Shown here: positions 29,697 to 29,916 of the stretch, piece after piece
Layout of the letters: the number at the start of each line of letters is the position of its first letter
Position numbering within the stretch: position 1 is the first letter of the stretch
Virus record (IMG/VR): IMGVR_UViG_3300028173_000017
DNA from: a virus
Length of the DNA: 46,936 nucleotides
Direction: 5' to 3' (one strand)
Position numbers and translations under genes: made by a program
Notes under the pieces: model-generated
What the model was told of the DNA's origin: nothing
Database searches by the model: none
The model's input: the letters and a program-made list of their open reading frames with translations, nothing else

Positions 29697-29893
29697 GGTG
29701 TGAGGTTTGCAACAATCAGGTTCACTTGAATGAAATATTCGATGCGTATTACTGTGATCCATGTGACGAATGGAAAGAAAAGAAACGCCCTGATGGGGAA
29801 TGCCCTCATTGTCGATCCCGGCCTGACCGGCCTTCAATGATCAAGAAAACGTCCAAGCGGGGTATTCCCCGATCTTTCGAAGATTTCGTGTAA
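29693..29893 (+). CDS. small zinc-ribbon protein
   Basis: CEVC...CDPCD...CPHC; GTGA overlap. Confidence 0.4.
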   Translation: MRCEVCNNQVHLNEIFDAYYCDPCDEWKEKKRPDGECPHCRSRPDRPSMIKKTSKRGIPRSFEDFV

Positions 29894-29916
29894 GACAAAG
29901 GAAAACGTGGTATAAT
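29888..29916 (+). promoter_or_regulatory. promoter (GTGTAA, 17 nt, TGgTATAAT); -35 overlaps the Val-stop of the upstream gene
   Basis: family consensus. Confidence 0.5.

Follow-up and report, generated by a model that had tools for sequence, protein, structure and literature searches.

Bacteriophages of the T4 type carry dozens of early promoters that combine a strong TGn/-10 element with a lineage-specific -35 region beginning with G, and many of these promoters precede novel open reading frames (ORFs) or tRNA genes (PMC1524935). In T4 itself the early promoters consist of GTTTAC, TGn, TATAAT and an A-rich UP element and are used by the unmodified host sigma70 holoenzyme (PMC1524935, PMC2988021). 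The T4 early -35 hexamer GTTTAC spans positions -36 to -31, while RB49, RB43 and Aeh1 have G at -33 (PMC1524935). Phages of the pairs RB49/phi1, T4/PST and KVP40/nt-1 contain promoter-early stem-loop (PeSL) cassettes, i.e., a promoter with an adjacent stem-loop built from a G-run and a C-run (PMC2839356, PMC4122927). These cassettes are concentrated in hyperplastic regions of the genomes, where they recombine and shuffle orphan genes (PMC2839356, PMC4122927). Here we describe a repeated cassette, very probably a promoter, in a stretch of viral DNA of 46,936 nt (IMG/VR record IMGVR_UViG_3300028173_000017), which is referred to in its full length as the window. The site at 29888-29916 served as the point of reference.

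A repeated GTGTAA cassette in front of genes

The window is an auxiliary region of a large phage with many small ORFs that lack any family match. It contains about 18 copies of the cassette when weaker members are included. A motif search over the whole sequence, as suggested in an earlier note on this DNA, returned 12 exact copies of GTGTAA-N14-TGNTATAAT, all of them on the + strand (Table 1), and none in 100 dinucleotide-preserving shuffles. The 14 nt before TGNTATAAT correspond to a distance of 17 nt between the two hexamers. At the reference site the sequence reads GTGTAA GACAAAGGAAAACG TGGTATAAT. A near-copy at 256 carries a single mismatch (TGATAGAAT, with TAGAAT as -10 hexamer), such that the number of GTGTAA cassettes amounts to 13. 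The earlier note had recognized the same motif and put the count at 14 or more, which is too high, and it had assigned a 20-nt spacer to a site at 34970, where the box in fact starts at 34973 and has the standard 17-nt spacing. Its GTGAAC(ACC) variants at 5474, 19170 and 30734 were confirmed, each with a TAnnAT hexamer 17 nt downstream. Two further members, at 5100 and 24545, had been missed.

The arrangement is rigid and strand-specific. GTGTAA sits exactly 14 nt 5' of every one of the 12 + strand occurrences of TGNTATAAT in the window, and among gaps of 11-18 nt no other gap is used. A weight matrix built from the 13 sites detected no site on the - strand of the window and one marginal extra match overall. 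For the loose pattern GTGNAN-N17-TANNNT there are 20 matches on the gene strand versus two on the opposite strand, whereas its canonical counterpart TTGNNN-N17-TANNNT is found 16 and 20 times, respectively. A scan of the region from 26 to 45.9 kb with the TTGACA/TATAAT consensus yielded no excess (22 sites found versus 23.5 expected), and none of the 11 family sites within 26,000-45,900 is listed by it. A site of the type TTGTAC-N17-TATAAT was noted at 16226.

The downstream half of the cassette is a textbook extended -10 element for a sigma factor of the sigma70 family, as had been proposed. The hexamer TATAAT is perfect in 12 of the 13 GTGTAA sites, with the site at 256 as the exception, and the TGn extension is present in all 13. 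It is missing from the weaker member at 5100 and from the four GTGAAC variants. GTGTAA occupies positions -35 to -30 and agrees with TTGACA at three of six positions (T-34, G-33, A-30), fewer than the four or more that a sigma70-type -35 hexamer would share with it. It is preceded by C at -36 in 10 of the 13 sites, and this 'extended -35', with a C preceding and RA following the box, is restricted to the window's own lineage, in which ATAnATGT is also conserved 3' of the -10 hexamer. No A-rich UP element, which T4-type early promoters have around -40 to -44, was found in the 23 nt upstream of the box (AT content 0.61 versus 0.53 in the background, A content 0.28 versus 0.28), and no position in these 23 nt is conserved in the 13-site alignment. 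The Mot box, (a/t)(a/t)(a/t)TGCTT(t/c)A centred at -30, is likewise absent from this alignment. In all GTGTAA sites the GTGTAA box and the GTATAA contained in TGGTATAAT are near-identical hexamers that lie 22 bp, or two helical turns, apart. This likeness may be a coincidence, since the corresponding box of other lineages reads GTGCAA or GTGAAA.

A Shine-Dalgarno sequence and a start codon follow all 13 GTGTAA sites, 13-62 nt after the -10 hexamer, and all plausible genes of the window lie on the + strand. Eleven of the 13 sites are found within 23-44 kb, among small ORFs that mostly lack a family match. Given their position and orientation, their conservation (see below) and the gene starts downstream of them, the cassettes are very probably promoters, and the promoter family described in the earlier note is borne out in this respect: its sites are strand-specific, each is followed by these translation start signals, and they are conserved in front of orthologous genes with divergent spacers. 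A literature search on GTGTAA or TGGTATAAT as a phage promoter returned nothing relevant.

Conservation in relatives and exchange between cassettes

The window was compared with a set of contigs, here given L numbers. L046, L111 and L114 are close relatives (about 85% protein identity) and have the promoters at the same positions. No nucleotide match was found for the window among 50,697 phage records, nor for L001 and L054, and protein matches were distant only. The best example of conservation over a larger distance is the gene for a 260-aa protein at 29952, downstream of the reference site. Homologues occur in four further lineages, each preceded by a promoter of the same type with an unrelated spacer, and taken together the orthologues keep the boxes in five lineages at 30-92% protein identity. 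In L112 (44% identity to the 260-aa protein) the boxes are identical to those of the window site, L113 (30%) has a CTGTAA box with C in place of G, and L115, a Tara polar scaffold (47%), has a gap of 15 nt instead of 14.

A pattern scan of IMG/VR returned many single matches, as expected by chance, along with contigs bearing several matches on one strand. When up to two mismatches are allowed and sites on the same strand are counted, such arrays comprise 18 sites in 8 kb scanned of L051, 18 in 12 kb of L001, 15 in 14 kb of L113, 13 in 9 kb of L054 and 10 in 6 kb of L104. Circularity was avoided by conditioning on TGNTATAAT alone and then reading the hexamer 14 nt upstream. Lineage by lineage, this hexamer is GTG[T/C/A]A[A/G/T] in nearly all cases. 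It has this form in 36 of 38 cases in the L001/L054/L104/L109 group, the other two being ATGTAA, and in 12 of 12 cases in L051. G-35, T-34, G-33 and A-31 are invariant across lineages, while the fourth and sixth positions of the box drift. The G+C content of promoter-bearing contigs ranges from 32 to 55%. As a negative control, 40 kb of the huge phage LR745208.1, the RNA ligase of which is 48% identical, contained no copy of the motif. Two kinds of pattern match were discarded: L082, a contig from a giant-virus metagenome-assembled genome (MAG) with a TTTTGGTGTAA tandem repeat, is a false positive, and L120, L142, L181 and L215, from a Candidatus Poribacteria MAG, carry a repeated element (cagatgtagcGTGTAAagtcacgctacatcTGGTATAATctaatttta...) unrelated to the promoter family.

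In an all-against-all protein comparison most of the array contigs proved to be linked pairwise, and we therefore regard the promoter family, on sequence grounds, as a trait of one broad, uncultured marine phage group. The group includes contigs of 101, 134, 168 and 284 kb. One of its members is the contig PBIO01000025.1 of the 'Halobacteriovorax sp. SP2999' MAG, which carries promoter arrays and shares sites with the IMG/VR record UViG 2788500220_000014. The loci L233, L184 and L138 lie on this contig and on PBIO01000016.1. PBIO01000025.1 is a phage contig in a bacterial bin, either through mis-binning or as a weak hint at the host.

Comparison with L114 revealed that the cassettes exchange sequence. 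Blocks of homology between the two contigs end at 27858, i.e., 29 nt before the box at 27887, and at 37657 and 37738. The last two positions delimit an 82-nt island which consists of the cassette alone and is surrounded by unrelated DNA. The stretch 39364-39411 matches L114 only at two of its cassettes. The L114 orthologue of the promoter at 37325 carries the spacer of the window's site at 38585 (14 of 14 positions identical), that of the promoter at 29888 carries the spacer of the site at 39365 (13 of 14), and that of the promoter at 37661 is a chimera. These patterns amount to gene conversion among the repeats, the crossovers lying in the conserved boxes. The other insertions and deletions that distinguish the window from L114 are homing-endonuclease or single-gene insertions away from cassettes: the endonuclease gene at 25480-26340 is missing in L114, and an insertion in L114 encoding a NUMOD3 endonuclease is missing in the window.

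Hairpins, stop codons and gene context

In 8 of the 13 sites of the window a stem-loop begins within a few nucleotides of the expected transcription start, which falls on or close to the G of ATGT. For the wider lineage of the window (43 sites), 32-mers starting 6 nt after the -10 hexamer were folded. A minimum free energy of -6 kcal/mol or lower was reached by 67% of these 43 promoter-proximal segments as opposed to 21.5% of random 32-mers from the same strands (Mann-Whitney p = 1.8e-7). Stems of the type GGGG-AUGG-CCCC, with a G-run followed by a C-run, recur. Terminator-like sites are not clearly enriched in the window (25 versus 18.6 +/- 3.9 expected), and the only one that touches a cassette is a weak stem across the box at 35670 (35668-35684). 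No known RNA family in Rfam matches the cassettes or leaders. As the stem-loop is located after the predicted start and lacks a U-tract, it is more likely a 5' RNA hairpin than a terminator.

The earlier note had drawn attention to the fact that GTGTAA can serve as the last sense codon and the stop codon of the preceding gene, had counted at least seven such cases and had proposed that termination and the next promoter are fused. The overlap does exist; the TAA of the box is the in-frame stop codon of the upstream ORF at six sites of the window, i.e., 27887, 29888, 34973, 35670, 37325 and 39365. When related contigs are added it is seen in 23 of 69 GTGTAA-type sites, exactly the one-in-three expectation for the reading frame (binomial p = 0.55), with the window and L114 contributing non-independent samples to this count. 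Other upstream ORFs stop a few nucleotides 5' of the box or within the spacer, and in relatives some stop in the TAA of TATAAT. The box of sister lineages reads GTGCAA, GTGAAA or GTGTAG, and neither TAA nor any stop codon is consequently a conserved property of the box; the overlap is missing from the GTGCAA and GTGAAA lineages. Chance-level frequency and the lack of a conserved stop codon lead us to consider the overlap an incidental by-product of tight gene packing that involves no coupling mechanism, and functional fusion of the two signals is not upheld. A second GTGTAA, at 5203-5208, ends the ORF 4231-5208 and overlaps the first tRNA gene of the window.

Two of the GTGAAC variants stand directly in front of a gene. 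As already remarked in the earlier note, the geometry is that of leaderless transcripts: the -10 hexamers end 6 and 5 nt before the ATG codons at 19205 and 30768, such that the A of ATG is the 7th and 6th nt, respectively, after the -10. The same distance between ATG and -10 is also seen at L111:10780 and L111:1179 and is too short to hold a Shine-Dalgarno sequence. With the ATG at the distance expected for the transcription start and no room for a Shine-Dalgarno sequence, it is a reasonable inference that the mRNAs from 19170 and 30734 are leaderless. At 30727-30743 an inverted repeat, AGGTGT-N5-ACACCT, overlaps the GTGAAC box, and the upstream ORF there ends with a valine codon and a stop codon, GTG TAG. 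The boxes at 5474 and L111:1179 are likewise bracketed by GGTG...CACC pairs, and the inverted repeat may constitute an operator.

Table 1 Members of the cassette family in the window.
Type	Position	Strand	Features
Cassette, near-copy	256..284	+	GTGTAA-N14-TGATAGAAT; gene start 309; upstream ORF ends 250
Weaker member	5100..5128	+	GTGTAA-N17-TAAAAT, without TG; 66 nt 5' of tRNA-Gly/Arg/Thr cluster
GTGAAC variant	5474..5502	+	GTGAAC-N17-TATTAT; upstream of gene for 870-aa vault-like protein (5552)
Cassette, exact	14225..14253	+	Upstream of RNA ligase gene (14282); hairpin 14268-14281
GTGAAC variant	19170..19198	+	GTGAAC-N17-TAGAAT; ATG at 19205, predicted leaderless
Cassette, exact	23289..23317	+	Gene start 23379; hairpin 23334-23351; kept in L046, L111, L114
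GTGAAC variant	24545..24573	+	GTGAAC-N17-TATACT; about 50 nt 5' of tmRNA gene; kept in L111
Cassette, exact	27887..27915	+	TAA is stop of ORF 27761-27892; 18-codon hydrophobic ORF at 27940
Cassette, exact (reference site)	29888..29916	+	TAA is stop of ORF 29693-29893; hairpin 29927-29940; gene 29952 (260 aa)
GTGAAC variant	30734..30762	+	GTGAAC-N17-TAGGAT; ATG 30768, predicted leaderless; kept in L111, L114
Cassette, exact	34973..35001	+	TGTTATAAT; TAA is stop of ORF 34241-34978
Cassette, exact	35670..35698	+	TAA is stop of ORF 35247-35675; hairpin 35707-35721; upstream of metallophosphoesterase gene
Cassette, exact	37325..37353	+	TAA is stop of ORF 37100-37330; hairpin 37363-37375
Cassette, exact	37661..37689	+	Hairpin 37696-37716; cassette 37657-37738 is isolated homology island to L114
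Cassette, exact	38585..38613	+	Strongest hairpin, 38621-38641, -16.8 to -18.3 kcal/mol depending on segment folded
Cassette, exact	39365..39393	+	TAA is stop of ORF 38888-39370; hairpin 39401-39415
Cassette, exact	43035..43063	+	Short leader, no hairpin; gene start 43083
Cassette, exact	43991..44019	+	Short leader, no hairpin; gene start 44039

The genes of the window include those for nicotinamide phosphoribosyltransferase, a NadR-like protein, a CCA-adding enzyme, two RNA ligases, a polynucleotide kinase, an endonuclease V-like protein, a GH25-type endolysin and several homing endonucleases, as well as three tRNAs and a transfer-messenger RNA (tmRNA). The gene downstream of the cassette at 39365 encodes a 444-aa VWA/metallopeptidase-like protein, and an equivalent promoter precedes its homologue in L113. 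The first reading frame after the promoter at 27887 is an 18-codon hydrophobic mini-ORF at 27940-27996 on the + strand (MFTIWIVTMLVLWGLALF) with a strong Shine-Dalgarno sequence. In the 870-aa protein encoded at 5552-8164 (+), a Major Vault Protein shoulder domain (PF11978, 4.6e-21) is combined with a vault repeat (PF17795); this protein has no match in PHROG. Vault-like or SPFH-related proteins are unusual for a phage.

RNA repair and quality control form a recurring theme, with ligases, the kinase and the CCA-adding enzyme encoded at 1362-2021, 12140-12970, 14282-15187 and 31837-33588, accompanied by the tRNAs and the tmRNA. The cluster of tRNA-Gly(GCC), tRNA-Arg(TCG) and tRNA-Thr(GGT) is located at 5194-5423 (+), and the tmRNA at 24626-24985 (+) (Rfam RF00023, 92 bits, full length), for which ARAGORN predicts the tag peptide ANDNSEYSYAQAA. 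L114 has, at 1551-2891, a TROVE (Ro60-like) plus VWA gene not present in the window. A NAD salvage pair, nicotinamide phosphoribosyltransferase and a NadR-like cytidylyltransferase/NUDIX protein, is encoded at 15123-18778 (+) beside a dehydrogenase. A short (338 aa) adenylosuccinate synthetase-like protein (22016-23032, +) is filed with PurZ in PHROGs, and its neighbours include an HD-type deoxyribonucleotidase-like protein and a NUDIX protein. A genome containing 2-aminoadenine (Z-genome) is not indicated, because, against solved structures, this protein matches cellular PurA (5e-54) far better than PurZ (about 4e-16 to 5e-20). Four genes for HNH or homing endonucleases reside at 4231-5208, 21123-22007, 25480-26340 and 40822-41436. 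The core of T4 late promoters, TATAAATA, was considered as a further promoter signal and rejected; it occurs six times (9181, 14259, 21112, 23353, 27851 and 42664; 0.67 expected), but four of the six are on the non-coding strand. Two of these occurrences abut promoters of the family.

Recognition of the cassettes and relation to known promoters

The polymerase, the start site, the timing and the role of the hairpin we infer as follows. Host RNA polymerase with a primary sigma factor of the sigma70 family would most likely act on the cassettes before phage replication, each cassette driving one small gene or a short gene group in the auxiliary, variable region. Sigma regions 2.4 and 3.0 would bind TGGTATAAT. 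The GTG-N-A box, 17 nt from the -10 hexamer, would occupy the -35 position and, in view of its invariant non-consensus bases, be read with altered specificity. Transcription would begin about 7 nt 3' of the -10 hexamer, within the conserved ATGT, and the RNA of about two thirds of the cassettes would open with a G-run/C-run hairpin, which may protect the 5' end. As near-identical repeats the cassettes also recombine with each other, shuffling spacers and flanking genes in the manner of the PeSL cassettes of T4-type phages. A TGn extension together with a consensus -10 hexamer suffices for open complex formation by a sigma70-family holoenzyme in the absence of -35 contacts (PMC2988021), and the 13 main sites should therefore be active with any primary sigma factor. 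On balance, the cassettes are probably extended -10 promoters that are used early in infection by the primary-sigma holoenzyme, with the host enzyme acting alone. The analogy to T4 early promoters argues for this reading and the gene content (ligases, kinase, orphan ORFs, tRNAs) fits it; the early class and the sigma70 assignment put forward in the earlier note are plausible.

Several observations weigh against early transcription by the host enzyme alone. G-35 and A-31 are non-consensus and yet invariant, which plain sigma70 recognition does not explain, and an UP element is lacking. The hairpins lie 3' of the -10 hexamer and have no U-tract, unlike PeSL terminators. A scan of bacterial genomes with the strict pattern did not reveal, among the matches listed, any clade with the motif as a native promoter. 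Finally, the GTGAAC variants, which have no TG and imperfect -10 hexamers, would need real recognition of the -35 region. Some of these points could be accommodated if the promoters depended on a factor of the phage lineage that reads GTG-N-A, either a sigma70-like factor whose region 4 has diverged or a pair that appropriates sigma in the manner of T4 MotA/AsiA; the promoters would then belong to a middle rather than an immediate-early class. The requirement of the GTGAAC variants for specific -35 reading would be explained in this way, as would the invariance of G-35, T-34, G-33 and A-31 in every lineage while positions four and six drift. In addition, the trait tracks a group of phages that share genes, with G+C contents of 32-55%, canonical TTG-type sites show no enrichment on the gene strand, and no bacterial taxon stands out among the matches listed, the sole 'bacterial' contig with multiple sites being a phage contig. 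On the other hand, a perfect extended -10 element requires no activator, and, like T4 early promoters, the sites stand before ORFans and functions typical of the pre-replicative phase. When about 50 proteins of the window and 30 proteins of related loci were scanned against Pfam and PHROG, no sigma factor, anti-sigma factor or RNA polymerase domain was detected, and no sigma-like or DNA-binding domain was found among the approximately 50 window proteins, a weak counterargument given that the searches covered only a small part of any of these phage genomes. Hallmark genes for structure or replication did not turn up in these scans either, be it in the window or in its relatives. The promoter-adjacent 260-aa protein (29952-30734, +), which is kept in all lineages of the phage group and always preceded by the promoter, was evaluated as a possible transcription factor. 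Its sequence contains two internal repeats (..F..DM..R...G..L..KQ..W) together with a lysine-rich tail, and a confident AlphaFold model (pLDDT 85) consists of helical repeats and a small C-terminal beta-barrel, but neither a Pfam or PHROG match nor an informative match to solved structures was obtained, which also speaks against a phage factor. Dependence on such a factor is, all in all, unlikely though worth keeping in mind, and we are slightly more reserved still about the wider proposition that GTG-N-A is the element of an undescribed transcription-takeover factor common to widespread, uncultured large marine phages. If this were true, a sigma factor with altered region 4, or an appropriation mechanism unrelated to MotA/AsiA, would redirect the host polymerase to hundreds of cassettes per genome.

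An alternative source of the unusual box would be the host. If a GTG-type -35 element reflected the primary-sigma specificity of some marine host clade, the phages would simply copy strong host promoters. That the box is common to the whole phage group, that the member contig PBIO01000025.1 (101,404 bp) was binned in a Halobacteriovorax MAG, and that strong Shine-Dalgarno sequences alongside predicted leaderless starts suggest a particular kind of host are all compatible with this idea. Membership in a MAG bin is weak evidence for a host, however, the tmRNA tag ANDNSEYSYAQAA gave no secure host assignment, and the matches listed for the strict pattern are almost only single ones scattered over many phyla, as chance would produce. 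We know of no described bacterial -35 consensus of GTG-N-A form, which counts against a host-derived box as well, and we hold this origin to be improbable. Even less credit is due to a primary role of the repeat at the DNA level, be it as a recombination site, as a protein-binding direct repeat (GTGTAA and GTATAA 22 bp apart) or as an RNA-processing signal, which we judge very improbable. The cassettes do recombine and mark breakpoints of homology, and the two boxes, spaced by two helical turns, resemble each other as hexamers, but the -10 half matches the extended -10 consensus at nine of nine positions, the spacing is fixed at 17 nt, every site is co-oriented with a gene and located just upstream of its start, and the GTGCAA and GTGAAA boxes of other lineages weaken the direct-repeat idea. 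Recombination is, moreover, an expected side effect of repeated promoters (PMC2839356).

Early transcription by the host enzyme thus remains the preferred reading. The motif itself bears on how these phages can be studied. The signature GTG-N-A-N, 17 nt and TATAAT with the TG extension would mark pre-replicative gene cassettes in a poorly annotated group of marine phages, permitting the prediction of operons and gene starts as well as the recognition of related contigs. Gene shuffling by promoter cassettes is extended from T4-type coliphages and vibriophages to a distant lineage, and the invariant non-consensus -35 bases raise the testable question of how region 4 of sigma, or a phage factor, reads the DNA.

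Among described systems, the PeSL cassettes come closest. Shared features are the many near-identical early-type promoters that precede small genes, mostly orphans, of a variable region, the adjacent stem-loop with G-runs followed by C-runs, the location of cassettes at breakpoints of insertions, deletions and replacements between close relatives together with recombination between cassettes, and a -35 version peculiar to each lineage. The window cassettes differ in that their -35 element is GTG-N-A and not TTGACA, TTTACW or TTGYVH, that there is no AT-rich upstream region, and that the stem-loop follows the predicted start and has no U-tract, while that of RB49 has been shown to be a terminator. 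T4 early promoters share the very strong extended -10 element, a conserved, non-canonical -35 region which begins with G and varies by lineage, and copies before novel ORFs and tRNA genes. GTGTAA is nevertheless one base out of register with GTTTAC and matches it at four of six positions only if shifted by one base; GTTTAC or GTTGAC is not found at -36 to -31, the window sites have no UP element, and no Alt-like ADP-ribosyltransferase was seen in the window. As regards T4 relatedness, the window encodes RNA ligases, polynucleotide kinase, an endonuclease V-like protein and homing endonucleases; hallmark structural and replication genes were seen neither there nor in its relatives. T4 middle promoters, which are activated by MotA/AsiA, resemble the cassettes in combining a sigma70-type -10 hexamer, often with TGn, with a phage-specific upstream box in place of the -35 element. 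They differ in having TGCTT centred at -30 and 11-13 nt from the -10, an arrangement that does not occur in the window sites, and no homologue of MotA or AsiA was detected in the window. The general class of extended -10 promoters is matched perfectly by TGNTATAAT, but such promoters normally have no conserved -35 region, whereas in the cassettes conservation at the -35 position equals that at the -10. Since the sequences fall outside the definitions of both the T4 early and the Mot-box middle family, we assign the cassettes, as far as sequence can tell, to the repeated phage early-promoter cassette kind but to neither of these two sequence families. Beyond what the earlier note had recognized, the analysis added the family-wide GTG-N-A box, the 5' hairpin, the cassette mosaicism and the wide spread in an uncultured group of marine phages.

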